Source: a virus | UHGV virus genome: UHGV-0042151 | DNA length: 35,904 nt | Strand: one strand, 5' to 3' | Shown: in pieces, positions 14,512 to 35,904 of the stretch | How positions within the stretch are numbered: position 1 is the first letter of the stretch | Layout of the letters: each line of letters begins with the position of its first letter | Position numbers and translations under genes: made by a program | The notes under the pieces: model-generated | Seen by the model: only the letters and a program-made list of their open reading frames with translations | What the model was told of the DNA's origin: nothing | Database searches by the model: none

Positions 14512-14522
14512 GATCTCACCTT

Positions 14523-15123: not shown

Positions 15124-15213
15124 TAATTAGCGCGTTAAATGTCAACTTTCTACGATAAATAAATCATATGTGGTTAAATTGGTAATAATTTAATTGCGTA
15201 CGGAGTCATTGAT

Positions 15214-15420
15214 ATGTGCATGGGTAGCTCACCATCAGTGCCTGCAACACCAGAAGTTCAGGCAGCACCACAGGAGCAGGATGCCGCCGTTGTTGATGCC
15301 CGCGACGAAGAAACACGTCGCCGTCGCGCTGCTGCTGGTCGTAGTTCTACGCTGCTTACCGGTTCTCAGGGCGACACATCAACTGCTAATACCAGCGGTA
15401 AAACGCTGCTTGGTCAGTAA
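15214..15420 (+). CDS. small hypothetical protein (68 aa)
   Basis: CGGAGTCATTGATATG RBS context repeated at the portal start (15421-15437). Confidence 0.4.
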   Translation: MCMGSSPSVPATPEVQAAPQEQDAAVVDARDEETRRRRAAAGRSSTLLTGSQGDTSTANTSGKTLLGQ

Positions 15421-15434
15421 CCGGAGTCATTGAA

Positions 15435-17114
15435 ATGGCGGAAACAACTAAAGAGCGATTGAACAAACAGTTCGCACAACTTGAAAGCGAGCGTCAGTCG
15501 TTCGAGCCGCACTGGCGCGAGTTGAGTGATTACATCAACCCGCGTGGTTCCCGCTTTCTGACTTCTGAGGTCAACCGTAACGATCGACGCAATACACGCA
15601 TTATTGATTCGACCGGGACTATGGCGGCGCGCACTCTCGCCAGCGGCATGATGTCAGGCATCACAAGCCCTGCGCGTCCGTGGTTTCGCCTGGCTACGCC
15701 AGATCCTGAAATGATGGATTATGGTCCTGTTAAGTTGTGGCTCGAGGCGGTGCAGAACCGCATGAACGATATGTTCAATAAGTCGAATCTCTACCAGTCT
15801 CTTCCGCAGTTATACGGAAGCCTCGGCACATACAGCACTGGTGCAATGGCGGTGCTGGAGGATGACGAGGACATCATTCGCACAATGCCATTCCCGATAG
15901 GCAGTTACTACCTGGCTAACTCACCTCGTGGCAGTGTGGACACCTGTTTTCGCAAGTTCTCTATGACTGTTCGTCAGCTTGTTCAGGAGTTCGGGCTAAA
16001 TAACGTCAGCGAATCCGTAAAAAGCATGTGGGAAAGCGGCACCTACGAGAAGTGGATTGAAGTGATGCATTCGGTTTACCCGAACATTGACCGCGATACA
16101 TCGAAGCTGGATAGCAAGAACAAGCCATTCAAATCGGTTTATTACGAGTTTGGCGGCGATAACGACAAGTTGTTGCGTGAGTCCGGATTCGATGAGTTTC
16201 CAATTATGGCTCCGCGCTGGGAAGTTAACGGCGAAGATGTTTATGGATCATCATGCCCGGGTATGCTGGCGCTTGGACCTGTTAAGGCATTGCAGCTTCT
16301 CCAGAAGCGCAAGTCGCAGTTGATTGATAAAGCCACCAATCCGCCGATGGTTGCTCCGACTTCCCTCAAGAATCAGCGCGCCTCCCTTCTTCCTGGCGAC
16401 ATCACGTATATCGATCAGATTACTGGTCAGGATGGTTTCAGGCCTGCTTATCTGGTTAACCCCAGTACAGCAGATCTGGTAGCAGACATTCAGGACACTC
16501 GTCAAATCATTAACAGCGCCTACTTTGTCGATCTGTTCATGATGTTGCAGAACATCAATACCCGCTCGATGCCTGTTGAAGCGGTGATCGAAATGAAAGA
16601 AGAAAAACTTCTGATGTTGGGTCCGGTTCTGGAGCGTCTGAACGACGAATGTCTTAATCCTCTCATTGACCGCGCTTTCTCGATGATGGTGCGTAAAAAC
16701 ATGCTGCCGCCACCGCCAGACGTGATGGAAGGTATGCCCCTGAAGGTCGAATACATTTCCGTCATGGCTCAGGCGCAGAAGTCTATCGGCCTGTCCAGTC
16801 TGGCGTCCACGGTTAACTTCATTGGTCAACTTGCGCAAGCGAAACCAGAAGCTCTCGACAAACTCAACGTTGATCAGGCGATCGATGCATTCGCTGATAT
16901 GTCCGGAGTGTCTCCAACCGTCATTGTTCCGCAGGAACAGGTTGAGCAGGCTCGCCAGCAACGAGCACAGCAACAACAGCAGCAACAAATGATGGCGATG
17001 GGGATGGCGGCGGCACAGGGTGCCAAGACGCTAAGCGAAGCTAAAACTTCGGATCCGAGTGTTTTGTCAGCTATGGCGAATGCAGTTAGTGGTCAGGGGG
17101 GGCAATCACAATGA
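15435..17114 (+). CDS. portal (head-to-tail connector) protein
   Basis: 559 aa; size and position ahead of scaffold and capsid, T7-like order. Confidence 0.7.
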   Translation: MAETTKERLNKQFAQLESERQSFEPHWRELSDYINPRGSRFLTSEVNRNDRRNTRIIDSTGTMAARTLASGMMSGITSPARPWFRLATPDPEMMDYGPVKLWLEAVQNRMNDMFNKSNLYQSLPQLYGSLGTYSTGAMAVLEDDEDIIRTMPFPIGSYYLANSPRGSVDTCFRKFSMTVRQLVQEFGLNNVSESVKSMWESGTYEKWIEVMHSVYPNIDRDTSKLDSKNKPFKSVYYEFGGDNDKLLRESGFDEFPIMAPRWEVNGEDVYGSSCPGMLALGPVKALQLLQKRKSQLIDKATNPPMVAPTSLKNQRASLLPGDITYIDQITGQDGFRPAYLVNPSTADLVADIQDTRQIINSAYFVDLFMMLQNINTRSMPVEAVIEMKEEKLLMLGPVLERLNDECLNPLIDRAFSMMVRKNMLPPPPDVMEGMPLKVEYISVMAQAQKSIGLSSLASTVNFIGQLAQAKPEALDKLNVDQAIDAFADMSGVSPTVIVPQEQVEQARQQRAQQQQQQQMMAMGMAAAQGAKTLSEAKTSDPSVLSAMANAVSGQGGQSQ

Positions 17115-17407
17115 CAGATTACGAAGACGATCAACTGAAAGAAGAAAACGCCCGTAAGCAACGTGACATGGCAAAGCGTGAAATTGATGACATTCGCTTT
17201 GTCATGAGCAGTGAACAGGGGCGTCGCGTTGTCTGGTCTGTGCTGGAGAAAGGCCGGGTGTTTTCCGCTATCTCTCCGATGGATGCTATGGCAATGGCAT
17301 TTAATGAGGGGCAACGCAATCTGGCGCTGGAACTGTTTCAGCGCGTTATGGCGCATTGCCCTGAACAGTATTTGAAGATGGCCAAAGAGGCCAGTGAACA
17401 GGAGTGA
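17111..17407 (+). CDS. hypothetical head-assembly-associated protein (98 aa)
   Basis: ATGA overlap with portal stop. Confidence 0.45.
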   Translation: MTDYEDDQLKEENARKQRDMAKREIDDIRFVMSSEQGRRVVWSVLEKGRVFSAISPMDAMAMAFNEGQRNLALELFQRVMAHCPEQYLKMAKEASEQE

Positions 17408-17409
17408 TC

Positions 17410-18105
17410 ATGAATTTATTTGAGCGTTTGCTGTATCGCCGTCTTTGCAATGAGCAGCCAGCCGATGGCGGGGCAGCTCCGGCTGCGTCAGAACCGTCAG
17501 CGCATGCAGGTGATAACCCTGCTCCAGTTGGTGATCCATCACAACAGGAAGGTGATAAGCCACAACCTGTTGCTGATGGCGATAAACCTGCTGATGACAA
17601 AAAGCCTGAAAACGATAAGCAGGGTGAAAAAAAGGACGGCGATAAACCAGAGGGTGCGCCTGAGAAGTACGAGTTTCAGGCTGCCGAAGGCGTAGAGCTG
17701 GATACAGAAGCGTTGAAGGAATTCGAGCCGGTGGCGCGAGAACTTAACCTGACCAACGAGCAAGCGCAAAAGCTGGTTGATGCTTATCCGAAGATTCTGG
17801 CAGGTGTTCAGCAGCGCCAGGCAGAAGCCTGGCAGAAAACAACCGAGCAGTGGGCTGCGGATGTAAAAGCTGACAAAGAAATCGGTGGCGACAAGTTGAT
17901 TTCTAACCTTAGCGCCGCACAGCGTGCGCTTGACCAGTTCGGGACACCTGAGCTCAAAGAATATCTGAACACCACCGGGCTGGGTAATCACCCTGATCTG
18001 GTCAAAACGTTCGTGAAAATCGGAAAGGCGATGTCTGAAGATGGCATGGTCACCGGTGGTAATGAAGGCCAGCGTAGTGCGGCCGAAGTGCTCTATGGCA
18101 AATAA
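17410..18105 (+). CDS. scaffolding protein
   Basis: Acidic, low-complexity, helical 232-aa protein immediately upstream of capsid gene; GGAG SD then ATG 17410. Confidence 0.6.
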   Translation: MNLFERLLYRRLCNEQPADGGAAPAASEPSAHAGDNPAPVGDPSQQEGDKPQPVADGDKPADDKKPENDKQGEKKDGDKPEGAPEKYEFQAAEGVELDTEALKEFEPVARELNLTNEQAQKLVDAYPKILAGVQQRQAEAWQKTTEQWAADVKADKEIGGDKLISNLSAAQRALDQFGTPELKEYLNTTGLGNHPDLVKTFVKIGKAMSEDGMVTGGNEGQRSAAEVLYGK

Positions 18106-18119
18106 GAGAGGAAATGACA

Positions 18120-19106
18120 ATGGCTGTTAAAGGCTTAACTGCGCTAACGCTGGCTGACTGGGGTAAGCGCGTCGATCCAAACGGGAAAGTCGATAAGATT
18201 ATCGAGCTTCTCGGTCAAACTAACCCGATCCTTCAGGATATGCCTTTTGTCGAAGGGAACCTTCCTACCGGACACCGAACCACCATTCGTTCTGGTTTAC
18301 CTTCAGCTACCTGGCGTTTGCTGAACTATGGCGTACAACCAAGCAAATCAACAACGGTGCAGGTCACTGATTCCATTGGCATGCTGGAAACCTATGCTGA
18401 AGTCGATAAGTCTCTGGCTGATCTGAACGGTAATACTGCCGAATTCCGCCTGTCTGAAGACCGAGCATTTATTGAAGCGATGAATCAGGCGATGGCGCAG
18501 ACGCTGTTTTACGGTGATTCCAGCGTTAACCCTCAGCAGTTTATGGGACTGTCCTCCCGCTATTCCAGCCTGTCTGCGGGTAATGCTCAGAACATCATTG
18601 ATGCTGGTGGCACGGGTACAGATAACACTTCAATCTGGTTAGTGGTGTGGGGCGAAAACACCGTGCATGGCATCTTCCCGAAAGGGCAGAAGGCTGGCAT
18701 CCAGATGGAAGATAAAGGCCAGGTGACACTGGAAGATGCTAATGGCGGCAAGTACGAAGGTTATCGTACCCATTATAAGTGGGACAACGGGCTGACATTG
18801 CGTGACTGGCGCTATGTTGTTCGCATTGCAAACATCGATGTCAGCAATCTTGACGCTCCTTCTACTGCTGCGAATATCGCAAAACTGATGATTCGTGCCC
18901 TTCATCGAATCCCAAATCGTGGGATGGGACGTCCTGTTTTCTACATGAACAGAACCATTAACGAAGTGCTTGACCTGCAATCTCTGGAGAAGAGTTCTCT
19001 GGCGATCAGCGTGAAAGAGACAGAAGGCGAATGGTGGACAGAACTTCGTGGTGTGCCGATTCGCGAAACTGACGCACTTCTGGAAACAGAAGCCCGCGTG
19101 GTGTAA
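18120..19106 (+). CDS. major capsid protein
   Basis: 328 aa after scaffold; GAGGAA SD then ATG 18120; strong stem-loop just downstream. Confidence 0.65.
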   Translation: MAVKGLTALTLADWGKRVDPNGKVDKIIELLGQTNPILQDMPFVEGNLPTGHRTTIRSGLPSATWRLLNYGVQPSKSTTVQVTDSIGMLETYAEVDKSLADLNGNTAEFRLSEDRAFIEAMNQAMAQTLFYGDSSVNPQQFMGLSSRYSSLSAGNAQNIIDAGGTGTDNTSIWLVVWGENTVHGIFPKGQKAGIQMEDKGQVTLEDANGGKYEGYRTHYKWDNGLTLRDWRYVVRIANIDVSNLDAPSTAANIAKLMIRALHRIPNRGMGRPVFYMNRTINEVLDLQSLEKSSLAISVKETEGEWWTELRGVPIRETDALLETEARVV

Positions 19107-19123
19107 CGCCTGTTATTAACCTG

Positions 19124-19143
19124 TGGGCCGCAACAGGCCCACT
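19124..19143 (+). other. GC-rich stem-loop after capsid gene (mRNA stabiliser or partial terminator)
   Basis: GTGGGCC-gcaaca-GGCCCAC, 7-bp stem, no U-tract. Confidence 0.4.
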
Positions 19144-19157
19144 AATGGAGAAAGAAG

Positions 19158-19595
19158 ATGATCACCGACAAACTGTTGATGTTCTCCGAAGCTCAGGCGG
19201 TTACGAATACCGCGGCTTCTACTGACGTAATCGATCTCGGTCCAATTGATGGAAACCGTCGCGATATCGGCGTGGGTTATCCGCTTGAGTTTTGGGTGCT
19301 GGTTAACGAAGCCGCCACGGCAAGTGGTGAGGCAACTGTAAACATCCAGTTGCAGACGAGTGAGAATAACAGCTCATGGTCCACTATTTATGATAGTGGC
19401 GCACTGGCAAAGGCCACCCTGACAGCAGGTAAGCGAGTTGTTTCTGCAAAGGTGCCAGCCGGTGTTCAGCGATATCTGCGTGTTAACTACTCCGTCGCAA
19501 CTGGCCCACTAACGGCTGGCAAATTCACTGCGGGTATCAATCTTGATGTTGATGCCAATACGCCGTATCCGATCCGCTCAAAAGTAACTGGTTAA
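19158..19595 (+). CDS. virion structural protein (145 aa)
   Basis: GGAGAAAG SD; position after capsid. Confidence 0.45.
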   Translation: MITDKLLMFSEAQAVTNTAASTDVIDLGPIDGNRRDIGVGYPLEFWVLVNEAATASGEATVNIQLQTSENNSSWSTIYDSGALAKATLTAGKRVVSAKVPAGVQRYLRVNYSVATGPLTAGKFTAGINLDVDANTPYPIRSKVTG

Positions 19596-19605
19596 GGTGA
19601 TATTG

Positions 19606-19941
19606 ATGTCAGGTGAGAAACCAAGATACCGCGTTCTGCGCCTCTCTCATATCCATAACACTCTGTGGCCGGAGGGGGCAGAAATCGAATACGAAGGTGA
19701 GCCTGGTAGCGCACTGGAACCTGTTAACGATGCAGCCAGACAGGCAAAAGCAAAAGTTGCAGGAAAGGTGTCAATGGCAGCAACCAGCACCAAAATCATC
19801 AACGATGTGTCAGATGATGGTGAACTGGATAAGCTCCGTGAAGAGTACGAATTGCTCTTTAACGAGAAGCCACACCATAACGCCAAAGCCGAAACGCTCC
19901 GCGAGAAGATCGCAGATAAGCGTAAAGAACTGGGCGTGTAA
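19606..19941 (+). CDS. hypothetical structural-module protein (111 aa)
   Basis: AAGGTGA SD then ATG 19606. Confidence 0.45.
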   Translation: MSGEKPRYRVLRLSHIHNTLWPEGAEIEYEGEPGSALEPVNDAARQAKAKVAGKVSMAATSTKIINDVSDDGELDKLREEYELLFNEKPHHNAKAETLREKIADKRKELGV

Positions 19942-19959
19942 GCCTCGCGAATCAGACAA

Positions 19960-19979
19960 GGGGCTTCGGCTCCTTTATT
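19960..19979 (+). terminator. weak intrinsic terminator or attenuator inside structural operon
   Basis: GGGGC-UUCG-GCUCC hairpin (one G.U pair) followed by TTTATT. Confidence 0.35.
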
Positions 19980-19991
19980 GCAGGAGTGTAT

Positions 19992-20315
19992 ATGGAACTC
20001 GTAAACCTCAAAACCGGCACTGACAGCTACCAGGATGAGAGCGGAGAAACCAGAACTCGCGATGAATACCCGTGGGGGCTGTGCATCACTCTTAATAACG
20101 ACACATTGAATAAGCTGAAGGCACAACCTCAGGGCGTCGGAACAGAAGTGATGATAACTGCAAAGGCTGTTATTCGAGGCCTGTCTGCCAGAGAAACTGA
20201 CGATGGTGTTAATCGCAGCGCCGATCTGCAGATCACTGATATGGCGATCGCTCCTGTTTCCGGGGATGTAGAAAAATCAGCGGCTGAAACTCTGTACGGT
20301 AACGGAGGTGAGTGA
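19992..20315 (+). CDS. hypothetical structural-module protein (107 aa)
   Basis: CAGGAG SD then ATG 19992 (track start 19986 is GTG). Confidence 0.45.
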   Translation: MELVNLKTGTDSYQDESGETRTRDEYPWGLCITLNNDTLNKLKAQPQGVGTEVMITAKAVIRGLSARETDDGVNRSADLQITDMAIAPVSGDVEKSAAETLYGNGGE

Positions 20316-20920
20316 TGGCCTCTGTAGTAGAGATCTGTAATCGTGCGCTGTCCAATATTGGCAATAGCCGCAGCATTAACAGCCTGACGGAAGCCAGCAA
20401 GGAAGCGGGGGAATGTTCGCTGCACTTTGAGGCCTGCCGTGATGCTGTGCTTTCTGATTTTGACTGGAACTTTGCTACCAAACGCGTGGCGCTTGCAGAT
20501 ACGAGCAATCCACCGCCTGACTGGGAATATGCGTACCAGTACCCGTCCGATTGTCTGCGCATTACTGAAATTATGCTTCCTGGTGTACGCAATCCAACAG
20601 CAGCAATGCGCGTTCAGTACGAAGTAGGTGTAGACACCAACGGAACAGGAAAGTTGATCTACACAGACCAGCCTCAGGCATGGCTCAAGTATGTCTCTCG
20701 CGTTACAGATGTGAACATGTTTGATGCCATTTTTATGGAGGCGTTGGCCTGGCGTCTTGCGGCAGCTATTAACATGGCGCTGACTGGGAATGCAGACCTC
20801 GGTACGTTTGCCCTCAATATGTACAATCGCGTGATTCTTAGTGCTGGCTCGCATAGCCAGAATGAATCACAGGAACCACAGCCACCGGTTGACGAGTTTA
20901 CCATTGCGAGGTTGTCCTGA
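20315..20920 (+). CDS. tail tubular protein A-like (by size and synteny)
   Basis: 201 aa directly upstream of the 823-aa protein; T7 gp11/gp12-like arrangement. Confidence 0.45.
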   Translation: MASVVEICNRALSNIGNSRSINSLTEASKEAGECSLHFEACRDAVLSDFDWNFATKRVALADTSNPPPDWEYAYQYPSDCLRITEIMLPGVRNPTAAMRVQYEVGVDTNGTGKLIYTDQPQAWLKYVSRVTDVNMFDAIFMEALAWRLAAAINMALTGNADLGTFALNMYNRVILSAGSHSQNESQEPQPPVDEFTIARLS

Positions 20921-26913: not shown

Positions 26914-28712
26914 GTTACTTTGGCCTTAATCCAGTAAACCAGAATCAGCAGCTTGACGAAGCAGCATCAAATCCAGCTGGCTTTAACAGCGATGTTGGTT
27001 TTTTCGACAATGCTGTAGGAGCGGCATTGTCTGGTTTGTACTCCGGGCTGGTGGCAAAGCCAGATCAGTTGCTCTGGGCAGGGATGGATAAAATCGTATC
27101 CCCGATTGCTCAGTTTGTTAACGAAAACACCTCGCTCAATGACACTTCAGTTTCATACATTGCCGAGCAGAGAAAACTAGCAGAGCAGCAGGTTAAGCGG
27201 CTGACGCCTGATGCCGCGACAACTGGAACCGCCGGGCAGGTTCTTTATGGGTTGTTCGATATGGGCGGGCAGGCTGTTGTTGGTACAACGCTCGGTGGTC
27301 CGGTCGGAGGTGCTGCGGCGGTAACTTCGCTACAGGGTTTTTCTGAGTTTGAACGGCTGACAGCACAGGGTGTTGATTTCAGGACGGCGCAGGAAGCGGG
27401 ATTAGTGCAGGGCATTACTGCTGGTGCCGGAACGCTGATCCCTATAAGCCTCGGGTTACGTGCTGGTGGTGCGCTGGCGGAAGGTGTGGCGGCTCAGCTT
27501 GCGCGGACGGGTGAAAGTTCAGTGCGACGCGCCGCAGCAACAGCAGTACGTGCAACGCCAGATATTGCCTATGCCGCAGGTACAAATATTGCGTTCGGTA
27601 TGGCACAGCGTGGGCTTACTGCAAAAACGCTTCGTGATGGTGGCTATAGCGAAATGGCTAATCAGTATGATGTGTTGGATCGACAGGCAATTGCTATTGA
27701 TGCTGTTCTTGGAGTGGCGTTTGGTGGTGTCGGCAGATTTATTAACTCTCGCGGCGAGTCTACAAGCGCACCAAATTTTTCACCAGTTGATGTCGATGCT
27801 GCACTGGCGGCGAATGCCGCTCATCATGCTGAAATTGATATTGCTCCCGGTGTGCCGATCAACGTGCTTTCGCGTAATTCGCACATTCAGGCTCTGCGAA
27901 AAGCCATGTCTGATGTTAGCCAGGGGAGACCTGTAGACGTTGCCAGCATTGTTGAGTCTGCATCTTTCAGTGAAATTCCTGGGCGCAAGAGTCTGCTTTC
28001 TCAGGCAGTTAATGAGGCTCTGTCATCTGTAGATGATGGAGTAACGGCGCGCGCTATAGAAAATCGGTTGCTTGAAGAACAGGCCGCGCAGCTTTTGCCG
28101 CGTGGCGATAGACAGGTTTACCAGTCTGAAATCGCTAATAGCCAACGAATTATTGAAAATCTCACTGAACAGCGCGCACAAATTCTTGCAGAAGAGCCAA
28201 CCGGTAGCGGTAAAGCTTTGTCTCGTGCTCGATCAGATAAACAGGCCAGACTTCGCGATATTGATCAACGAATCCGGCAGGCACAAGAACGCCTGGAGTT
28301 TTCCCGTAACGCGTTGGCACCGCACGAGCCTGGCGGTCAGTTTTTTGAAGCTCGAGCAGAACTGGCACGACGACAGCAGGCAGAAAGTGAACTTAATGCT
28401 CAGGCTGTTTCATTCTATAAAACAGCAGAGGTCAGGACGCCAGACGAAGTAGCTCCTTTTGAGCCCGGTAAGATATTGCAACAGACAGAACAAAAAATGA
28501 TGGCAGATCCGGCAGGAGATATTGATCTGCGTATAGCTGAAGACTCGCTGCTTGAATCTCCGGACATGATAATCACCGTGCTGGATGATGATGGTAATCC
28601 ACAATCGCGCAGTGCGCGTGAAGTACTGGATGAAGCGAACAGGGAAAGTGAGCAGGCAATACAGGATTCCAGCCTGTTTGATGTTGCTGTGGCGTGTTTC
28701 TTGAGAGGTTAA
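26910..28712 (+). CDS. internal virion (ejection) protein, 600 aa
   Basis: Translationally coupled; Ala/Gly-rich N-terminus, coiled-coil C-terminus. Confidence 0.5.
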   Translation: MSYFGLNPVNQNQQLDEAASNPAGFNSDVGFFDNAVGAALSGLYSGLVAKPDQLLWAGMDKIVSPIAQFVNENTSLNDTSVSYIAEQRKLAEQQVKRLTPDAATTGTAGQVLYGLFDMGGQAVVGTTLGGPVGGAAAVTSLQGFSEFERLTAQGVDFRTAQEAGLVQGITAGAGTLIPISLGLRAGGALAEGVAAQLARTGESSVRRAAATAVRATPDIAYAAGTNIAFGMAQRGLTAKTLRDGGYSEMANQYDVLDRQAIAIDAVLGVAFGGVGRFINSRGESTSAPNFSPVDVDAALAANAAHHAEIDIAPGVPINVLSRNSHIQALRKAMSDVSQGRPVDVASIVESASFSEIPGRKSLLSQAVNEALSSVDDGVTARAIENRLLEEQAAQLLPRGDRQVYQSEIANSQRIIENLTEQRAQILAEEPTGSGKALSRARSDKQARLRDIDQRIRQAQERLEFSRNALAPHEPGGQFFEARAELARRQQAESELNAQAVSFYKTAEVRTPDEVAPFEPGKILQQTEQKMMADPAGDIDLRIAEDSLLESPDMIITVLDDDGNPQSRSAREVLDEANRESEQAIQDSSLFDVAVACFLRG

Positions 28713-28717
28713 ATTAA

Positions 28718-31192
28718 ATGAGACAGGAATGTATACAAGCGGTCCAGCAGGCGGCGCAGCGCACGTTAACGGCGCGAGAAATACAGAACATTGAAGACCG
28801 CATTTATCGAAATATGCGCTCCATTGCTCGTGATGACCCGATGTCGTGGCGACAACTTTCCGAATCAGAACGGTTGTATCGTGCAGCACAATTGGCATCT
28901 GAAGAATTACAGCGAGAAGCGGCATTAAAGAAACGTCGTGTGGCCCTCACTATAGCCGCACGTCAGAGATTGGATAAATTTATCAATAGCTATCAAGGGG
29001 CTGATGGGAAACTTGGCGCTCTTAACCGTACTATTGCTTTTAATGCAGACGGTAAATCGAATTTCCTCTCTGTTGAATCCAGAACAAAAGCCACCCGTGA
29101 TTATGCATTGAGTCAATTGCAGGAGGCATTCGAAGCAGTTGATCCTCGCTTTTTTGGTCTGTTTGAAGATGAAGCGGGCGTACGTGACCTGGTATATGAA
29201 ATGCGGGGGCAAAATACTGGCAATGCTAAAGCAAGAAAAGGTGCTAAGGCGTGGAGAGAAGTTACAGAGCTGCTGCGCCGCCGGTTTAATGATGCTGGTG
29301 GGGACATTGGCTATCTCGAAAACTGGGGGATCCCTCAACATCATTCTATGGAAAAGGTTGGGGCGGTATCAAAGGATAAGTGGGTTAGCGATGTTATAGG
29401 TAAGCTGGATCGCAAATATTATACCCGAGCCGATGGACAACTGATGAACGATGCCGAGTTGTCTGAATTTCTTGGAGAGGCTTATAACACGATCGCTACT
29501 GGTGGGCTGAATAAGCTTACTGATACCGGAATGCGAATTTCCGGCGCACGTGCTAACCGTGGTAATGCATCACGACAGATACATTTCAAAGATGCAGATT
29601 CCTATCTGCAATATCAGCAACTTTATGGCGATCGCTCTCTATGGGAAATCATGGTCGGTCACCTGGAAGGTATCAGTAAAGATATTGCGCTGGTGGAAAC
29701 ATATGGCCCAAACCCCGATCATGTTTTCCGCTCCCTTCTTGATCAGGTTAAGGCAGAAACGGCAACAGCTAACCCGAGTAAAACCGGTAGCGTCGAGCGT
29801 CTGGCGAACAAAACAGAGAACTTGTACAACTTTATTTCCGGAAAAACACAGCCTGTAGCGAATCCGCACATCGCGCGATGGTCTGACAATATCCGCAACT
29901 GGCTGGTTGCCAGCAGACTCGGATCCGCGTTGCTGTCATCGTTCTCTGATCTTGGAACCATGTATCTGTCTGCGAAGGTTACCAACCTTCCAATGAACCA
30001 GTTATTTCGCAACCAGCTTGAAGCTATGGACCCAACGAACCGTACAGAACTTGCGCGGGCGCGCCGCGCTGGCCTGGCGATGGAATCTCTACTTGGCAGC
30101 GTTAACCGCTGGGCGATGGATAATATGGGGCCGTCTGTGTCTCGTTGGGCGGCAACGGCGGTAATGCGTGCCAGTGGGCTTACAGCATGGTCAGATGCGC
30201 ACAAGCGCGCCTATGGCGTAACCATGATGGGAAGCCTGGGAGAAGTAGTGTCACGGACACCAGACCTTCGTAGCCTCGATGACTCTGATTTTCGTATCCT
30301 GAAAAGCAAAGGGATTACTGACACAGACTGGAGCGTATGGAAGCTGGCGCAACAGGAGGACTGGGGGAACGGTAATAATACGATGCTGACACCGGAAAGC
30401 ATTATGCGTATCCCTGATTCAGCAGTTAAACATCTTGGTGAGCCTGAACGCGTGAAATTTGAGGCAATGCGTAAACTGCTCGGTGCCGTAACTGAAGAAG
30501 TTGATATGGCTGTTATTACACCGGGCGCACGTGAACAGATGTTCGTAGGGTCTGGTCTTCAGCGTGGAACATGGAAAGGTGAATTAACGAGAAGTGTTTT
30601 CCTGTTTAAATCGTTCCCTATCTCGGTAGTTATGCGTCACTGGCATAGAGCTATGGGGATGCCGTCTGCTGGTGGGCGTGCGGCATATATAGCAACGTTT
30701 TTAGCAAGCACAACCATGCTTGGTGCTCTTTCCATGCAGATTACTGATCTTATTAATGGGAGAAATCCAAAAGAAATGACCGGTGACAACATGGTTAAAT
30801 TCTGGATAAATGCATTTTTAAAAGGTGGTGGGGCAGGGTTGTATGGTGATTTTCTTTTCTCTGACCACACCAGGTACGGGAGCGGCGCACTAGCGTCGAT
30901 GCTTGGCCCGGTAGCTGGTCTGGTTGATGACGTAGTGAAGATTGCTCAGGGCATACCGTTAAATGCTGTGGAAGGGAAGAATGAGCAGACTGGTGGTGAT
31001 CTGGTTAAGCTTGGGAAAGGTTTGATGCCTGGTGCGAATCTCTGGTACTTGAAGGCGGCTCTCGATCACATGATCTTTAATCAGATGCAGGAGTATTTTT
31101 CACCAGGCTATTTGCGTAAAATGGAGCAACGTTCGAAGAAAGAGTTTAACCAGACATACTGGTGGCGACCTCAGGATGTCACTCCGCAATAA
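28718..31192 (+). CDS. internal virion (ejection) protein D-like, 824 aa
   Basis: Last large gene before accessory island; synteny with T7 gp16 region. Confidence 0.5.
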   Translation: MRQECIQAVQQAAQRTLTAREIQNIEDRIYRNMRSIARDDPMSWRQLSESERLYRAAQLASEELQREAALKKRRVALTIAARQRLDKFINSYQGADGKLGALNRTIAFNADGKSNFLSVESRTKATRDYALSQLQEAFEAVDPRFFGLFEDEAGVRDLVYEMRGQNTGNAKARKGAKAWREVTELLRRRFNDAGGDIGYLENWGIPQHHSMEKVGAVSKDKWVSDVIGKLDRKYYTRADGQLMNDAELSEFLGEAYNTIATGGLNKLTDTGMRISGARANRGNASRQIHFKDADSYLQYQQLYGDRSLWEIMVGHLEGISKDIALVETYGPNPDHVFRSLLDQVKAETATANPSKTGSVERLANKTENLYNFISGKTQPVANPHIARWSDNIRNWLVASRLGSALLSSFSDLGTMYLSAKVTNLPMNQLFRNQLEAMDPTNRTELARARRAGLAMESLLGSVNRWAMDNMGPSVSRWAATAVMRASGLTAWSDAHKRAYGVTMMGSLGEVVSRTPDLRSLDDSDFRILKSKGITDTDWSVWKLAQQEDWGNGNNTMLTPESIMRIPDSAVKHLGEPERVKFEAMRKLLGAVTEEVDMAVITPGAREQMFVGSGLQRGTWKGELTRSVFLFKSFPISVVMRHWHRAMGMPSAGGRAAYIATFLASTTMLGALSMQITDLINGRNPKEMTGDNMVKFWINAFLKGGGAGLYGDFLFSDHTRYGSGALASMLGPVAGLVDDVVKIAQGIPLNAVEGKNEQTGGDLVKLGKGLMPGANLWYLKAALDHMIFNQMQEYFSPGYLRKMEQRSKKEFNQTYWWRPQDVTPQ

Positions 31193-31201
31193 GGAACAAC
31201 A

Positions 31202-31615
31202 ATGAAGGAATTATTGCTGTTATCGGTATTTTTGATATCCGCTTGCTCGACATCCTATGATGTTTATGACGGTGTTGATAAGGCATATTGCGACAAAGTT
31301 AAAATGGATTTTTCTCTTGCCAAGACGGCGAAGGATAGTTGTATTGATCACTACGTCAAGACTTATACCAAGCCAGCCTCATCGGCATCTGATATTGCTG
31401 AAGGTGCTGTGTTTGAGTGTAACAAGGTGATATCCATCGCAGCGAGTTCTTCATACGATGCTGCTGTATGTGCAATGGCTGAAAGAAACGGCATGTCAGT
31501 GCAAAAAATTAATAGCATGATAAGCAGTAATGACGAAGCCAAAATAAGAACTGATATCAGCTCGGTGAAAAAAGATGCCATGAACAGAGTTGTAAAATAT
31601 CAGTCATCTTTATAA
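31202..31615 (+). CDS. lipoprotein (137 aa), candidate superinfection-exclusion or moron product
   Basis: Signal peptide plus lipobox 'LISAC' then Cys; own terminator. Confidence 0.55.
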   Translation: MKELLLLSVFLISACSTSYDVYDGVDKAYCDKVKMDFSLAKTAKDSCIDHYVKTYTKPASSASDIAEGAVFECNKVISIAASSSYDAAVCAMAERNGMSVQKINSMISSNDEAKIRTDISSVKKDAMNRVVKYQSSL

Positions 31616-31618
31616 GTC

Positions 31619-31630
31619 GTGACATGTCAC
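31619..31630. promoter_or_regulatory. 12-bp perfect palindrome GTGACATGTCAC (copy 3 of 3)
   Basis: Immediately 5' of terminator hairpin. Confidence 0.35.
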
Positions 31631-31631
31631 A

Positions 31632-31655
31632 GGCCGCTTTCGCGGCCTTGTTTTT
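31632..31655 (+). terminator. rho-independent terminator
   Basis: GGCCGC-tttc-GCGGCC followed by TTGTTTTT. Confidence 0.6.
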
Positions 31656-31815
31656 AACGAATGCCACCGCCACCCGGGCGGGAATCCGCAGAACGCCCAC
31701 CGCAGCGGGAGCCGTCAGCAGCAGTGTCGCTGTCGTGCTGACAACGACCGGCAAAGGCCTGAGTTGAAGCTACCAGAGACAACAAAACGAACAGTGCAGC
31801 AAATGCTTTTTTCAT
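31654..31815 (-). CDS. small secreted peptide (53 aa precursor)
   Basis: 'MKKAFAALFVLLSLVASTQAFA' signal peptide then 31-aa Gly/Arg-rich tail with 2 Cys; upstream TTGACG-17-ATAGAT promoter-like. Confidence 0.4.
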   Translation of the reverse strand: MKKAFAALFVLLSLVASTQAFAGRCQHDSDTAADGSRCGGRSADSRPGGGGIR

Positions 31816-31886
31816 TGTGAAATTTCCATCTATAAGCCACCTCAATGTGGCGTCAATGAGTGTAGCACTGACTTTTGTTTCGCCCA

Positions 31887-31909
31887 CAAAAAAGCCCGCA
31901 GCGCGGGCT
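31887..31909 (-). terminator. rho-independent terminator (minus strand)
   Basis: AGCCCGC-gcu-GCGGGCU then U6 on minus strand, starting at the stop codon of the 31908 gene. Confidence 0.5.
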
Positions 31910-32348
31910 ATTCTTCTTCATCATTAAAAAGCGGATTGTTGTTTCCATCTGATGAAAGGAAAGGTATGTGTTCTCTTGAAAATCCAACAATGACAATTTC
32001 ATTATCATTTTTTGCATAATGAATGCATTCATTAGAATGCCTTCCGCCAGGGTTGAAATTTAAGTTAATGGTATAATTCTTAAATGTGTTTGGATACCAT
32101 GTTGGCCCACAATGATAATGCCAATAATTCTCTTGCTCATAATTGTCTGAGCCGGGAATTTTATCATGGTTATCATCAACCCACGAGGGCTTGTTTTTTC
32201 CAACAAGCGCCCTTCCATTGGCAACATCCTCTAAAAAACTTTGTATGATTTTTATTTCATCATCAGTAAGGAAAGGTCCGTCTACAGCGAAAGGGGTGTT
32301 GCTTTCCCCATGTAGAAAACTATTAGATATTCTAATGTTAAACTTCAA
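31908..32348 (-). CDS. hypothetical AT-rich protein (146 aa), second gene of two-gene operon
   Basis: TTG start 32348 with AGGAG SD 6 nt upstream (the track's ATG 32489 start has no SD and overlaps the small ORF); no recognisable domain. Confidence 0.4.
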   Translation of the reverse strand: MKFNIRISNSFLHGESNTPFAVDGPFLTDDEIKIIQSFLEDVANGRALVGKNKPSWVDDNHDKIPGSDNYEQENYWHYHCGPTWYPNTFKNYTINLNFNPGGRHSNECIHYAKNDNEIVIVGFSREHIPFLSSDGNNNPLFNDEEE

Positions 32349-32368
32349 GGAAAACTCCTGATGTGCTT

Positions 32369-32536
32369 CTATTTGGAGCGAAATGCCGCCTTGAAGTCGC
32401 TGAAAGATGTTCCTGTCTGGTAAACCATATCCTTGTCGCGCTCTTTGCTTGCGCGGCCAAGCATAACTTTTCCAATGACATCCCAGCATTGCTTGGCTTG
32501 TTCATTGTGCTGAGTACGATTTTTCAACGCTGTCAT
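32369..32536 (-). CDS. small hypothetical protein (55 aa), first gene of two-gene operon
   Basis: AGGAGG SD 6 nt before ATG 32536; 'MTALKNRTQHNEQAKQCWDVIGKVMLGRASKERDKDMVYQTGTSFSDFKAAFRSK'. Confidence 0.45.
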   Translation of the reverse strand: MTALKNRTQHNEQAKQCWDVIGKVMLGRASKERDKDMVYQTGTSFSDFKAAFRSK

Positions 32537-32548
32537 ATCGCGCCTCCT

Positions 32549-32563
32549 TTACCTTTAAGGTAA
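32549..32563. promoter_or_regulatory. palindromic site TTACC-N5-GGTAA at promoter of two-gene operon
   Basis: Minus-strand TTGCAG-17-TACTAT promoter-like element abuts the site; site abuts SD. Confidence 0.5.
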
Positions 32564-32611
32564 TAGTACGCTATTCACCCACAGTCTGCAATCTGTACAG
32601 AATTATTTAAA

Positions 32612-32627
32612 GGCACATCCCTGTGCC
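32612..32627 (-). terminator. possible terminator after Bro-N gene
   Basis: GGCACA-GGGA-TGTGCC hairpin with A/U-rich 3' flank on minus strand. Confidence 0.3.
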
Positions 32628-32635
32628 GCCGCCCG

Positions 32636-33322
32636 TCAGAAGAACCCAGCCTTGTCGTTGATGTACTCCGCGTGGGTCTGGATATCACGCAGGCATTTGC
32701 TCACACCAACAATGTAGCAGAACATGGTGGTCAGCTCCGCCGCCGCGCCCGATACGTCGTGCCCGTCTTCCTGTAACTGGTTCAGCAGATTCATCAGCAG
32801 TGAGTTCTCCGTCAGGCCGAGAACACCAGACGGAGAATGAATCAGGCTGCGGTAGCCGGGCTTCAGTGGGGCACTGTAGGTTTTGTTCTCTATCTTCATT
32901 GCCTGCATCACTGCTGATGCTGTGGCGTTGGCTACCTGGTCGGCAACTATCTTTATGCGTTCTTCCTGCGGGAGCGAGTTTTTAATGTAACTTCCGGTGC
33001 GGCGGATCTGAGGAAGAACCTCACCTGTAACCCATTTACGAAAGCGGTAGGGGATAGTGCCTGGTGTCACTGCGTCGCGGCAGCGGAGGATCAGTGTGTA
33101 GAGGCCTGACTCGTTGATAATATTGGTTTCACCTTGACGGCCTAAGTTAAATTTAGCCCTTTCATCATCATCAAGAGATTTTATTGACATAGTGGGGTTT
33201 GTCAGTTGAAGAGCTTTAATAACGTCTTTGGCAACAAACCAAGGATTTCCATCAATAACAATGGCTCGAATGGTGGCTTCTGATTCAAAATGAAAAACAG
33301 ATGGGGTTACGTTAGCAGTCAT
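32636..33322 (-). CDS. Bro-N domain antirepressor-like protein
   Basis: N-terminus 'IRAIVIDGNPWFVAKDVIKALQL...GLYTLILR' fits Bro-N; C-terminal domain homologous to the 34473..34730 product; AGGTGA SD then ATG 33322. Confidence 0.65.
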   Translation of the reverse strand: MTANVTPSVFHFESEATIRAIVIDGNPWFVAKDVIKALQLTNPTMSIKSLDDDERAKFNLGRQGETNIINESGLYTLILRCRDAVTPGTIPYRFRKWVTGEVLPQIRRTGSYIKNSLPQEERIKIVADQVANATASAVMQAMKIENKTYSAPLKPGYRSLIHSPSGVLGLTENSLLMNLLNQLQEDGHDVSGAAAELTTMFCYIVGVSKCLRDIQTHAEYINDKAGFF

Positions 33323-33481
33323 AGTGATCACCTTTTAGTATGGTTAATCACCACCTGAGGTGCAAATCTCGTTGGTGGTGAGACGTACAGGGTTTGCACT
33401 ACCGGCTAAAAGGACCCGGCGCACCTTTCGGTGCCCCTGCACGTCCCACCATAATTCTGGCATGACTGTGCTATACGCATA

Positions 33482-33503
33482 AAAAAACCACGTCTGGCGT
33501 GGT
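33482..33503 (-). terminator. intrinsic terminator inside Bro-N upstream region (possible sRNA or attenuator 3' end)
   Basis: Minus strand ACCACG-CCAGA-CGTGGT followed by U7. Confidence 0.4.
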
Positions 33504-33593
33504 ATGCGCCTTTTAGTAATCCGGGGTGCAAATCCCGGCACTGGATTTTGCCAGTGCCCGATTACTATGGCACAAGAGGAGTGCGATGTAAAT

Positions 33594-33608
33594 TTACCGA
33601 AAAGGTAA
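33594..33608. promoter_or_regulatory. palindromic site TTACC-N5-GGTAA
   Basis: TTACCGAAAAGGTAA; about 90 bp upstream (minus sense) of the 33482 terminator. Confidence 0.45.
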
Positions 33609-33686
33609 TGATAAGCGCGAAAAAACATTAAAATCAACCGTATTTGGTTGATTGCGTTTAACGCTTGATCACCTGAAAGCAAGATA

Positions 33687-33701
33687 TTACCTTTAAGGTA
33701 A
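33687..33701. promoter_or_regulatory. palindromic site TTACC-N5-GGTAA upstream of 33722 gene
   Basis: TTACCTTTAAGGTAA, 20 nt before ATG 33722, just 5' of GAGGA SD. Confidence 0.5.
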
Positions 33702-33721
33702 TGTTATTGTGAGGAAAAGCA

Positions 33722-34450
33722 ATGGAAGTTTTCTGGATAGTTGTTGGTGTGGTTGCGGTGATTATTTACGTTATCAACCAGAACAAGACTAAGATCTCTG
33801 ATCGTACGGTCGTTAATCAGAACAAAACGATAAAGACCGAAGATGGGGAGATAACGATTAATCGTACACAGGTGATAGAGCACACATCTACTCAGTTTCA
33901 AAAAACTGGAGGTAACGCGCCTGATATTTCCGTACCTCCTGCTTATGATAGTGCGGTAATCCAGACATATTATAAACAGCAGGAGTTAGCAAAAGAGAGG
34001 CAACTGATTCAGCCAAAGCCGTTTACAGCTGAGCTTCCACCTGGAGTGTCAACGCGTCCGGCATATCATGGAAGATTCCCTGGTGATGACATATCGTCTC
34101 AGTCATTTAAAAAAGCACCTCAGGCAGTATCAGAGCCAGCAAGAATATCTTCTGTATCGCCGCCAAAAGAAGAATCAGCTAACAGAGTTTCAAGCGGTAG
34201 CAAGCAGTGCTTGCGATGCAGAATAAACCTTCCATATGAAAAATTCAGGAAATCGTCAAAAAATCCGGATGGATTGACTAAGTGGTGTGCAAGGTGTCTC
34301 GATGGCCCAAAGAATACACGTCATATGAAGTGGTGCCCAATTTGTAATGTCCGCAGAAAACGAACCAGCTTTTACCCTAATAATCAAAATGCGGACGGCT
34401 TAATGGCATGGTGCAAAACGTGCTGGGACGAGCACAAAGCGAAACGATAG
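33722..34450 (+). CDS. membrane-anchored protein with duplicated C-terminal zinc-ribbon (CxxC...WCxxC) modules
   Basis: N-terminal TM helix 'FWIVVGVVAVIIYVI'; 'CLRCRIN...WCARCLD' and 'WCPICNV...WCKTCWD'. Confidence 0.5.
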   Translation: MEVFWIVVGVVAVIIYVINQNKTKISDRTVVNQNKTIKTEDGEITINRTQVIEHTSTQFQKTGGNAPDISVPPAYDSAVIQTYYKQQELAKERQLIQPKPFTAELPPGVSTRPAYHGRFPGDDISSQSFKKAPQAVSEPARISSVSPPKEESANRVSSGSKQCLRCRINLPYEKFRKSSKNPDGLTKWCARCLDGPKNTRHMKWCPICNVRRKRTSFYPNNQNADGLMAWCKTCWDEHKAKR

Positions 34451-34474
34451 GCCGCTCTTGCGGCCTTTAAATTT
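34450..34474. terminator. bidirectional intrinsic terminator between convergent genes
   Basis: GGCCGC-tctt-GCGGCC followed by TTTAAATTT. Confidence 0.5.
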
Positions 34475-34730
34475 ACCGGGTTTGTTTTCGTAATTGTTCG
34501 GCACAATAGTCGAGATGTGTTTGCAGATCCTGCATAGACATCTGTGAGCTGGTGACGTAGTTAATCAGTGCAGTCAGTTCGGCAAGTGGGCCATCGACAT
34601 TAAATCCATCCTTATCGAGATCCCGGAGTAATTTCATCAAGTGCGATCCCTCCACCAGTGACCTGACGCCTCCCGGCGTGTGAATCCTTTCGGTAAATCC
34701 GTCTTCCAGTGGATAGTGATACTGCTGCAT
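34473..34730 (-). CDS. small antirepressor-like protein (85 aa), SOS-regulated
   Basis: GGAGAA SD then ATG 34730; homologous to C-terminal domain of Bro-N protein ('SLVEGSHLMKLLRDLDKDGFNVDGPLAELT' vs 'GLTENSLLMNLLNQLQEDGHDVSGAAAELT'); LexA box 22 nt upstream. Confidence 0.55.
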   Translation of the reverse strand: MQQYHYPLEDGFTERIHTPGGVRSLVEGSHLMKLLRDLDKDGFNVDGPLAELTALINYVTSSQMSMQDLQTHLDYCAEQLRKQTR

Positions 34731-34751
34731 CTTATCTTCTCCATGCAATAA

Positions 34752-34767
34752 CTGTATATTTATACAG
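34752..34767. promoter_or_regulatory. LexA (SOS) box
   Basis: CTGTATATTTATACAG = CTGT-N8-ACAG with AT-rich core; extended AACTGTATATTTATACAGTA matches 18/20 of the consensus TACTGTATATATATACAGTA. Confidence 0.6.
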
Positions 34768-34806
34768 TAGCAAATAATTTGTTTGCTATCCAGCACGTTT
34801 TGCAAA

Positions 34807-34821
34807 TTACCTGAAAGGTAA
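34807..34821. promoter_or_regulatory. palindromic site TTACC-N5-GGTAA between antirepressor and tailspike genes
   Basis: TTACCTGAAAGGTAA. Confidence 0.45.
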
Positions 34822-34925
34822 TATCTATTCGTATTCACAGTCTTTCTATCCATATATGGTTTTTCAGGTAATAGAATAACCAGATATGCGGCGCAACGGG
34901 TGCTGCGACTATCTGGAGATTTAAC

Positions 34926-35904
34926 ATGACGGTCTCAACCGAAGTTGACCACAACGAATACACCGGTAACGGCGTTACGACATCATTTCCGTATACCTTC
35001 CGTATTTTCAAAAAAACCGACCTGGTTGTTCAGGTGTCTGACCTGAACGGGAACGTAACAGAATTGGTTCTGGATACCGGTTATAAGGTAACTGGAGCGG
35101 GCACTTATAGTGGCGGTGAAGTGGTTCTCCCGTCGCCGCTTGCTGCTGGCTGGCGAATTACGATAGAGCGTGTGCTTGATGTGGTGCAGGAGACTGATCT
35201 TCGCAATCAGGGAAAATTTTTCCCCGAAGTTCATGAAGATGCATTTGACTACCTGACGATGCTGATCCAGCGATGTTTTGGGTGGTTCAGACGTGCATTG
35301 ATGAAACCATCTTTGCTTGCAAAATATTACGATGCAAAGCAAAACAAAATTTCTAACCTTGCAGATCCATCATTTGAGCAGGACGCTGTAAATAATCGCT
35401 CAATGCGTAATTATGTCGATGCTGCAATCGCCGGGGTTGTTGGTGGTTTTGGTTGGTTTATACCGTCAGGAAGCGGGGCAAGACAACGAACATTTCAAAG
35501 CAAAATGAGGGATATAATTTCTCCTTGTGATTACGAAGATAATATTTTTATGATTAAGGAGTTGATATCCAAAGGCAAAAATGCCGCTGTTTTTAACTCA
35601 TATTATACTTTTGTTATTACTGTTGGCGAATGGGGTGATTACCCTACACTCAAAGATGCAATCATTGCAGCCCAGTCAATGAGACCTATGTGGGATGGTG
35701 GTAATGCTTTCTGCGAAATAAGAATTAAGACCGGGCATATTATCAACTATCAAATTGAATTCAGTTCAGGTGTTGATTTGTCTTGGATTAAAATAACATC
35801 AGAAGACTCAGTGGTTTTCTCTGACACTCGTTTGTTTACTAAAATCGTTAGAACGTATTACGAATACAAGTATTTATTTTACATTTGCGATGCAGCAAAA
35901 AGTC
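34926..35904 (+). CDS. tailspike / tail fibre protein, 3'-truncated at window edge
   Basis: Open frame from ATG 34926 to end of window; N-terminus 'EYTGNGVTTSFPYTFRIFKKTDLVVQV' resembles the conserved particle-binding domain of podovirus tail fibres (T7 gp17-like pattern) as recalled; absent from ORF track because no stop is reached. Confidence 0.7.
   Translation, partial: MTVSTEVDHNEYTGNGVTTSFPYTFRIFKKTDLVVQVSDLNGNVTELVLDTGYKVTGAGTYSGGEVVLPSPLAAGWRITIERVLDVVQETDLRNQGKFFPEVHEDAFDYLTMLIQRCFGWFRRALMKPSLLAKYYDAKQNKISNLADPSFEQDAVNNRSMRNYVDAAIAGVVGGFGWFIPSGSGARQRTFQSKMRDIISPCDYEDNIFMIKELISKGKNAAVFNSYYTFVITVGEWGDYPTLKDAIIAAQSMRPMWDGGNAFCEIRIKTGHIINYQIEFSSGVDLSWIKITSEDSVVFSDTRLFTKIVRTYYEYKYLFYICDAAKS

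Follow-up and report, generated by a model that had tools for sequence, protein, structure and literature searches.

Hardies et al. 2016 (PMC4819975) worked out the T7-type module of tubular proteins A and B and internal virion proteins in the epsilon15 group of phages, to which BPP-1 belongs according to the same study. Swanson et al. 2022 (PMC8954989) listed epsilon15 homologues of gp14, gp15 and gp16 and noted a T7-like core stack, and a core stack together with a transient trans-envelope tube has been reported for epsilon15 (PMC4819975, PMC8954989). T7-like assemblies of portal, adaptor, nozzle and fibre have been solved for LME-1 and Carin-1, and the LME-1 paper calls Carin-1 a T7-like virus on structural grounds (PMC12407071). 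Here we describe UHGV-0042151, a viral sequence of 35,904 nt (the window) that is nearly a whole phage genome. We focus on its region 15435-35904, where the genes for the virion follow each other in an order resembling that of T7. Such an order in a temperate podovirus is already known and is the standard architecture of the phiV10/epsilon15 group. The original prediction for this DNA had read it as a temperate podovirus-type mosaic. The T7-type order in a temperate podovirus genome stands, but the arrangement is not a new mosaic.

The element and its relatives

We are highly confident that 15435-35904 is the late operon, with the virion genes, of a temperate podovirus of the phiV10/epsilon15 kind (genus Uetakevirus), most likely carried as a prophage in an Escherichia coli chromosome. 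Phages that have already been described are nearly identical to it. In a megablast comparison of the region with 50,697 phage records, the closest phages were HEMP4 (97.4% identity, 92% coverage), phiv142-3 (96.6%, 89%) and phiV10 (96.1%, 84%). The left arm of the window is covered only patchily by these relatives (54-75%), at 96-97% identity. The RefSeq map of phiV10 is gene-for-gene collinear with the window from the terminase through the 824-aa protein, and the records of phiV10 and phiv142-3 give Uetakevirus as the genus; by nucleotide identity and collinearity, the element falls into the same genus. Over the structural module, identity to phiV10, HEMP4, phiv142-3, PAS61, ZX5 and a prophage of E. 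coli MS 198-1 is 96-97%, with the same gene content and order from the terminase to the 824-aa protein. The body of the tailspike beyond its N-terminal domain is variable. Epsilon15 itself, a Salmonella phage and the type member of the group, shares the order from gp4 to gp20, the gp7-type capsid, the gp10 staple, the gp11/gp12 tail, gp13/gp14 and the type of tailspike N-terminus. However, only 27% of the region aligns with epsilon15 in DNA, at 74% identity, and the two are much more diverged than the genus label suggests.

According to the listing of open reading frames (ORFs), the early region (1 to ~11800) uses both strands and is followed by a packed plus-strand block (11855-31615), a mixed-strand accessory block (31908-34853) and a plus-strand ORF that starts at 34926 and runs past the window end. 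The 15 genes from the portal through the 824-aa protein are intact, tightly packed ORFs.

The prophage state is read from complete bacterial genomes. The DNA of adaptor and nozzle (20312-23391) was found at >=95% identity in 536 of 5426 complete E. coli genomes and almost always in the chromosome (548 of 551 places). In E. coli MS 198-1, this DNA is 100% identical to the window and part of a chromosomal prophage that runs collinear with the window, shifted throughout by 311 bases. Beyond the part equivalent to the window, the MS 198-1 prophage continues with a 729-aa tailspike, holins, a GH19 endolysin and a spanin, after which host genes begin. Because of this collinearity, the window is most likely a slice of such a chromosomal E. 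coli prophage, with the integrase and lysis genes outside the slice. A temperate life cycle is indicated by a helix-turn-helix (HTH) repressor-like gene (3897-4481), an antirepressor gene, the chromosomal copies and the host genes that follow the lysis genes in MS 198-1. The MS 198-1 copy also carries an IS200C transposase gene between the lysis genes and host yfgI (39420-39878 of that prophage, outside the window), and two of its early-region genes are flagged as partial pseudogenes. This copy may be partly decayed.

Portal, adaptor and nozzle

The structural ORFs had been named beforehand in the order and approximate size of their T7 counterparts (536, 307, 345, 196, 794, 138, 196, 747, 1318 and 553 aa for gp8 to gp17), and all of them are present on the plus strand with the predicted sizes and order. 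Six of their products can be tied to T7 by profiles or folds: the portal, the adaptor, the nozzle, the 154-aa and 181-aa internal proteins and, probably, the N-terminus of the tailspike. Six homologous genes in T7 order are not a product of chance; this order has been inherited, and the related phages that we looked at conserve it. Tail and ejection apparatus are of the T7 type. The claim that T7 genes 8-17 are mirrored thus holds by family or fold for the first five of these proteins and probably for the sixth. It does not extend to the scaffold and the capsid, and it reaches the 837-, 600- and 824-aa proteins by position only.

The portal gene (15435-17114, plus strand, 559 aa) belongs to the T7 gp8 family. 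Its product matches Pfam PF12236 with E=4.9e-187, the family that T7 gp8 itself matches with E=2.8e-113, and the two proteins share reciprocal matches to PHROGs 332 and 449. The similarity to the Carin-1 portal (8ck0_A) reaches E=6e-179.

The adaptor gene (20315-20920, plus strand) encodes 201 aa, or 202 aa when read from an upstream GTG. Its product matches the Carin-1 connector (PDB 8ck1_E) by sequence with E=8e-26. We also searched with an AlphaFold2 (AF2) model of the adaptor, which had a predicted local distance difference test score (pLDDT) of 79. Foldseek ranked 8ck1_E first (template modelling score, TM, 0.83), followed by the LME-1 adaptor and then by T7 gp11 (7box_M, E=4.7e-6, TM 0.57-0.61 over the full length), whereas P22 gp4 was reached with E=0.76 only. 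A profile built from 22 homologues found no hhalign match to T7 gp11, from a shallow alignment with an effective number of sequences (Neff) of 2.2. It is the predicted fold, not the sequence, that links the adaptor to T7 gp11 (tubular protein A).

For the tail nozzle (20920-23391, plus strand, 823 aa), which has the fold of T7 gp12 (tubular protein B), sequence and model agree. The protein matches the Carin-1 'Tail Nozzle' (PDB 8ck1_A) with E=5.5e-217. A profile was built from 26 representatives of 50%-identity clusters that share 36-51% identity with the window protein, and it aligned with T7 gp12 in hhalign (E=4.2e-6, probability 87%, residues 321-439 against 350-466). The matched part of gp12 falls inside the central domain (residues 354-556) that Hardies et al. 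(PMC4819975) described as conserved. The AF2 model (pLDDT 88) retrieved the Carin-1 nozzle with TM 0.90 and the T7 gp12 entries with E=1e-23 to 4e-20 (TM 0.49-0.55). The match to P22 gp10 was weaker and partial (E=9e-8, TM 0.31 on query length).

The nozzle family is very large. It comprises 18,311 representatives of 50% identity clusters at E<=1e-3 and 9,155 at E<=1e-30, and many members have 900-1500 aa, with insertions or extensions before the conserved C-terminal 520 residues.

Three points suggest a short-tailed virion: the folds of adaptor and nozzle, the lack of genes for a tape measure, tail tube or sheath in the window, and the morphology reported for ZX5. Matches of the structural proteins to siphovirus or myovirus tail proteins, named beforehand as the outcome that would speak against a T7-type order, did not occur: there is neither a sheath nor a tail tube. 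The sole match to a tape-measure PHROG falls on the muralytic domain of the 837-aa protein.

Tailspike and internal virion proteins

The tailspike gene starts at 34926 on the plus strand and is cut by the window end at 35904, so that at least 326 aa are visible. Residues 1 to ~166 would form a T7 gp17-type attachment domain. PHROGs 1640, 8460, 2710 and 27277 are matched both by this N-terminus and by residues 1 to ~150 of T7 gp17, and residues 1-207 match domain D1 of Carin-1 Dpo31 (PDB 28lx_A / 8ck1) with E=3e-32. D1 is the part of Dpo31 that is attached to the virion base (PMC13317679). Going by these similarities, residues 1-166 are probably linked to the N-terminus of T7 gp17.

Downstream of the nozzle, the gene for internal virion protein A (23391-23855, plus strand, 154 aa) is gp13-like: its product matches PHROG 308 with E=9.2e-63, and T7 gp13 matches the same PHROG with E=1.1e-42. 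The next gene (23855-24400, plus strand, 181 aa) encodes internal virion or ejection protein B of the T7 gp14 family. Over residues 1-160, it scores 31.2 bits on Pfam PF24072 (T7_gp14), above the cut-off of 27, on a model where T7 gp14 scores 160 bits. The original prediction had pointed to a similar gp14-like N-terminus, and rightly so: both N-termini start with MC and are hydrophobic. RefSeq names the protein 'virion core protein, T7 gp14 family'.

Three large proteins follow. The 837-aa protein (24400-26913, plus strand) occupies the position of T7 gp15, matches PHROG 992 'head protein' and contains a muralytic domain at residues ~245-400. It was also matched by PHROG 7182 'tail injection transglycosylase' (E=5.5e-23) and in PDB by 9vvp_L Gp29 (E=8.9e-39) and the endolysin 7q47_A (E=2e-17). 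The muralytic domain has no Pfam SLT match, and nothing significant was found between the protein and T7 gp15 (BLASTP best E=0.066) or the SLT region of gp16. The 600-aa protein (26910-28712, plus strand; PHROG 1145, no Pfam match) is, from its position, a probable internal virion protein without an identifiable T7 counterpart; its best BLASTP value against T7 gp15 is E=2.2. Neither the 837-aa nor the 600-aa protein shares a Pfam or PHROG family with gp15, and Hardies et al. could not confirm a homologue of internal virion protein (IVP) C in the epsilon15 group either (PMC4819975).

The 824-aa protein (28718-31192, plus strand; PHROG 684 'virion structural protein') is a candidate equivalent of the C-terminal region of T7 gp16, or IVP-D, and contains no SLT domain. 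By tblastn, it is 27.5% identical to epsilon15 gp17 (E=5e-98), a protein that Hardies et al. assigned as IVP-D with a significance reached only by chaining intermediate families (PMC4819975). It is 91-92% identical to the corresponding proteins of Salmonella phages SPN9TCW, SPC32N and 66FD (tblastn). The equation of the 837-, 600- and 824-aa proteins with gp15 and gp16 would follow from position and size only.

The 120 nozzle homologues listed were all at least 82% identical among the matches listed, and the loci retrieved with the nozzle alignment were 78-100% identical only. Distant synteny was examined by tblastn on annotated phages. In seven of ten distant relatives, the gene after the 824-aa homologue is annotated as a tail fibre or tail protein, as in T7, and in two others it is unnamed. 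The gene just before the 824-aa homologue is annotated as muralytic (endolysin, lytic transglycosylase or possible endolysin) in three relatives.

Several results weigh against the reading of this region as a T7-type late operon of a temperate phage. Pairwise BLASTP of the window proteins against their T7 counterparts (portal, capsid, adaptor, nozzle and gp13-gp17) gave nothing significant, and any relationship must therefore be ancient. The BLASTP check that had been suggested hence yielded nothing pairwise, while profile and fold methods do show links. In Pfam, the adaptor has no match and thus none to PF17212 (T7 gp11), the nozzle does not match PF25675 (T7 gp12), and PF05396 (T7 gp9 scaffold) is unmatched by the window proteins. 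The 154-aa protein stays below the cut-off of PF11090 (gp13; 13.6 bits against 25), as does the tailspike for PF03906 (gp17 N-terminus; 13.7 against 25.2 bits). The expected fibre with a gp17-like N-terminus is made probable by the four shared PHROGs, not by Pfam. A profile of the 824-aa protein, built from 11 homologues (22-46% identical) in Pseudomonas, Burkholderia, Ralstonia, Vibrio, Pelagibacter, Liberibacter, Escherichia and epsilon15 phages, came no closer to T7 gp16 in hhalign than E=0.005 and a probability of 7%, around a shared FKSF motif, and had no match among all PDB sequences. Ejection roles for the 837-, 600- and 824-aa proteins would thus follow from position, PHROG labels and the literature. 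The integrase and lysis genes lie outside the window, and the temperate status is therefore read from the relatives and the prophage copy; phiV10 has an integrase.

Head genes

The head genes are, with the exception of the portal, not those of T7. The portal gene is followed by a small Bbp19-like gene (17111-17407, plus strand; Pfam PF25181 Phage_Bbp19, E=2.9e-17) without a T7 counterpart. Next comes a scaffold-like gene (17404-18105, plus strand, 233 aa) between portal and capsid, whose product has a charged N-terminus rich in Pro, Asp and Lys. Its position suggests a probable scaffolding protein, and the charged N-terminus fits. Several records and PHROG 458 label it 'protease' or 'putative endoprotease'. 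The protein matched no peptidase family in Pfam, nor the T7 capsid-assembly family PF05396; without a peptidase match the 'protease' label looks unsupported and may be a propagated mis-annotation.

The major capsid protein (18114-19106, plus strand, 330 aa) is of the epsilon15 gp7/BPP-1 type (Pfam PF20911 GP7, E=1.8e-148) and has no match to PF21703, the family of the T7 capsid, in the Pfam scan. Its best PDB match is BPP-1 (3j4u_A, E=7e-128), ahead of Carin-1 (E=5.6e-88) and epsilon15 gp7 (3j40_A, E=7.5e-84). There is mosaicism within the genus, seen in a capsid closer to that of BPP-1 than to epsilon15 gp7 and in the 824-aa protein, whose identity is low to epsilon15 gp17 but high to the Salmonella phage proteins. 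Scaffold and capsid match those of T7 by position and general fold class only, and their families differ from the T7 ones.

Between capsid and adaptor lie three further plus-strand genes. One encodes a capsid cement or decoration protein of the Bbp16 family (19158-19595; Pfam PF21190, E=3.6e-49) with matches to the 'cementing protein' 3j4u_H (E=2.8e-29) and the 'Capsid Decoration Protein' 8cjz_B (E=2e-23). The second encodes a conserved 114-aa protein (19597-19941; PHROG 590, E=3.9e-61; no Pfam match). The third (19986-20315) is epsilon15 gp10-like (Pfam PF21628 Gp10-like, E=1.2e-51), and RefSeq calls the prophage copy 'capsid staple protein'. The gene between portal and scaffold, the three genes between capsid and adaptor and a 3.7-kb accessory block had not been mentioned in the original prediction.

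Carin-1, a phage of Cobetia marina (PDB 8CJZ, 8CK0, 8CK1), is the closest solved virion, with matches for portal, adaptor, nozzle, decoration protein, capsid and tailspike D1. It differs as a marine phage of another host, with 33% identity in the adaptor and 44% in the nozzle (Foldseek alignment) and another depolymerase body of the spike. The Bordetella phage BPP-1 (PDB 3J4U), again from a different host, shares the capsid and cementing proteins, and the window has Bbp19- and Bbp16-like genes. With T7, the order portal, scaffold, capsid, adaptor, nozzle, gp13, gp14, large internal proteins and fibre is shared. Unlike T7, the element has four extra small head genes, three large internal proteins (837, 600 and 824 aa) instead of two (747 and 1318 aa), and a muralytic domain in the first of these three, whereas the SLT domain of T7 is at the gp16 N-terminus. 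The terminase genes are upstream of the portal, and accessory genes on both strands stand between the internal-protein genes and the tailspike. In place of the fibre there is a tailspike, a phage RNA polymerase is missing, and the element is temperate.

Early region and terminase

The early region encodes an MT-A70 methylase, RecT, a PD-(D/E)XK exonuclease, the HTH repressor-like protein, DnaT-like, lambda P-like and Ead/Ea22 proteins and a DUF551 protein. This gene set is lambdoid and of the temperate type. The predicted repressor, antirepressor and recombination modules could all be located, as the HTH repressor, a Bro-N antirepressor and RecT with the exonuclease. The terminase precedes the portal, also as predicted. 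The small subunit TerS (11855-12529, plus strand; Pfam Terminase_2, E=1.4e-29) agrees in length and position with phiV10p01, and the large subunit TerL (12526-14001, plus strand; PHROG 2 'terminase large subunit', E=1.3e-52) corresponds to phiV10p02.

Members of the Autographiviridae would be recognized by a phage RNA polymerase and by having all genes on one strand. Outside the structural module, the ORF listing contains no ORF long enough for a single-subunit phage RNA polymerase; only the 491-aa TerL exceeds 330 aa there, and a phage RNA polymerase is therefore absent. The early genes are lambdoid and lie on both strands. The element is not a member of the Autographiviridae.

A tRNA-Arg gene with anticodon TCT (14710-14786, minus strand; ARAGORN and Rfam) is located between the terminase and portal genes. 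RefSeq places the tRNA-Arg of the MS 198-1 prophage on the minus strand too, whereas the GenBank record of phiv142-3 reverses its orientation with respect to these genes, which is probably a strand error in that record.

Accessory block before the tailspike

Between the 824-aa gene and the tailspike is a 3.7-kb block (31202-34925) with three minus-strand ORFs, one of them Bro-N, two plus-strand ORFs and two small RNAs. Its first gene (31202-31615, plus strand, 137 aa; PHROG 8691, function unknown) is lipoprotein-like, as its N-terminus MKELLLLSVFLISAC reads as a lipobox, and it may be a superinfection-exclusion or moron gene. The Bro-N antirepressor gene (32636-33331, minus strand; Pfam Bro-N, E=5.6e-20) has directly upstream of it a C4 antisense RNA (33371-33456, minus strand; Rfam RF01695, 77.8 bits). 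An isrK-like Hfq-binding RNA (33481-33557, minus strand; Rfam RF01394, 67.4 bits) is likewise upstream of the antirepressor gene, and both RNAs are above the gathering score. We take this set of C4 RNA, isrK-like RNA and antirepressor to resemble ImmI, the c4-icd-ant immunity region of phages P1 and P7. In the window it is placed in the late region, between the genes for the ejection proteins and the tailspike. The second plus-strand ORF (33722-34450, 242 aa) begins with a hydrophobic segment in its N-terminal part and carries two CxxC repeats of zinc-ribbon type at the C-terminal end. PHROGs for endonuclease VII, Lar-like and HNH proteins match it (E down to 4e-12), and Pfam Stc1 does so weakly.

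The block differs from that of phiV10. The window has the 137-aa lipoprotein-like, a 193-aa and the 242-aa zinc-ribbon ORFs, whereas phiV10 has at the same place a smaller block with a 46-aa membrane protein and a shorter antirepressor. In epsilon15, a small gene comes next after the homologue of the 824-aa gene, then a terminator and a gene on the minus strand.

Alternative origins and tail types

The combination of an order matching T7 genes 8-17 with a lambdoid early region (RecT, lambda P, DnaT) that is covered by relatives only patchily (54-75%) might suggest a recent mosaic, in which a lambdoid temperate phage captured the structural cassette of a lytic T7-like phage (Autographiviridae). 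We consider this extremely improbable. The proteins lack detectable pairwise similarity to those of T7, so that any common origin is ancient, and the capsid and scaffold families are not those of T7. The nozzle family forms a very large radiation of its own with its 18,311 representatives at 50% identity, and the same module, including the extra head genes, is found in hosts as diverse as Burkholderia, Vibrio, Pelagibacter, Liberibacter and Pseudomonas. Among the 50,697 phage records, no Autographiviridae phage is >30% identical across the whole module. The tail could also be of P22 type, with a gp4 adaptor, a gp10 hub, a gp26 needle and the ejection proteins gp7, gp20 and gp16. P22 is likewise a temperate podovirus of enterobacteria that has an O-antigen-type tailspike and an antirepressor; moreover, epsilon15 clusters with P22 in the gp14 and gp16 trees of Swanson et al. 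(PMC8954989), and P22 gp10 is a significant Foldseek match of the nozzle (E=9e-8). Yet the portal is in the Pfam family of T7 gp8, the adaptor model prefers T7 gp11 (E=4.7e-6) to P22 gp4 (E=0.76), the nozzle model aligns with T7 gp12 from end to end (E~1e-23) but with P22 gp10 in part (TM 0.31 on query length), and a needle gene is not evident. These comparisons leave a P22-type tail with hardly any probability. Since the tails of P22, T7 and epsilon15 are all distantly homologous (Hardies et al., PMC4819975), the P22 type differs from the T7 type in degree, not in kind.

It is also very unlikely that the region belongs to a defective prophage remnant and that its gene order is a relic without function. 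Chromosomal location in 548 of 551 places would fit a remnant, as would the MS 198-1 copy with its two partial early-region pseudogenes and an IS200 element adjoining the lysis genes. In the window, however, all 15 genes from the portal to the 824-aa protein are intact and tightly packed, and they are 96-97% identical to those of isolated phages that are recorded as infecting E. coli, namely phiV10, HEMP4, PAS61 and ZX5. The late operon of a phiV10/epsilon15-like temperate podovirus is the reading that we adopt for what follows.

Proposed assembly and ejection

A virion built from these parts would be assembled as follows. A P1 PacB-like terminase would package the DNA through the T7 gp8-family portal into a head that is assembled on the scaffold from a BPP-1/epsilon15-type HK97-like capsid protein and reinforced by Bbp16-type cement and gp10-type staple proteins. 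By analogy with the solved homologues, a dodecameric adaptor of gp11 fold and a hexameric nozzle of gp12 fold would form the short tail on the portal, and six trimeric tailspikes would dock on adaptor and nozzle via their gp17-type N-terminal domains. The 154-, 181-, 837-, 600- and 824-aa proteins would be packaged as an internal core. On infection, the tailspike would bind and probably cleave O-antigen, whereupon the core proteins may be released by way of the nozzle. The muralytic domain of the 837-aa protein would then cut the peptidoglycan, and the gp14-like protein and the larger proteins could form a trans-envelope DNA channel, as in T7. Our comparison shows that the parts are homologous, that known phages are near-identical and that the DNA occurs as a prophage; we infer the stoichiometries, the location of the core and the steps of ejection from the work on T7, Carin-1, LME-1 and epsilon15.

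A more far-reaching proposal is that the ejectosome has four components, the gp14-like protein and the 837-, 600- and 824-aa proteins, and differs from that of T7. The wall-cutting domain would have moved to the protein in the gp15 position, and the 600-aa protein would be an extra part of the channel without a counterpart in solved ejectosomes. A separate idea concerns the accessory block, which carries the lipoprotein gene, the antirepressor and the C4 and isrK-like RNAs: it might link the control of immunity to the transcription of late genes. We regard both proposals as speculative and rather unlikely.

As a discovery the element is of minor importance, since the module has been published and known phages are near-identical to it. 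The comparison is of practical use for annotation: public records still carry most of these genes as "hypothetical protein", and it backs the labels adaptor and nozzle, internal protein of gp13-like or gp14-like type, and muralytic ejection protein. As prophages of this type are present in ~10% of complete E. coli genomes, they offer a convenient and genetically tractable temperate system for T7-type genome ejection.

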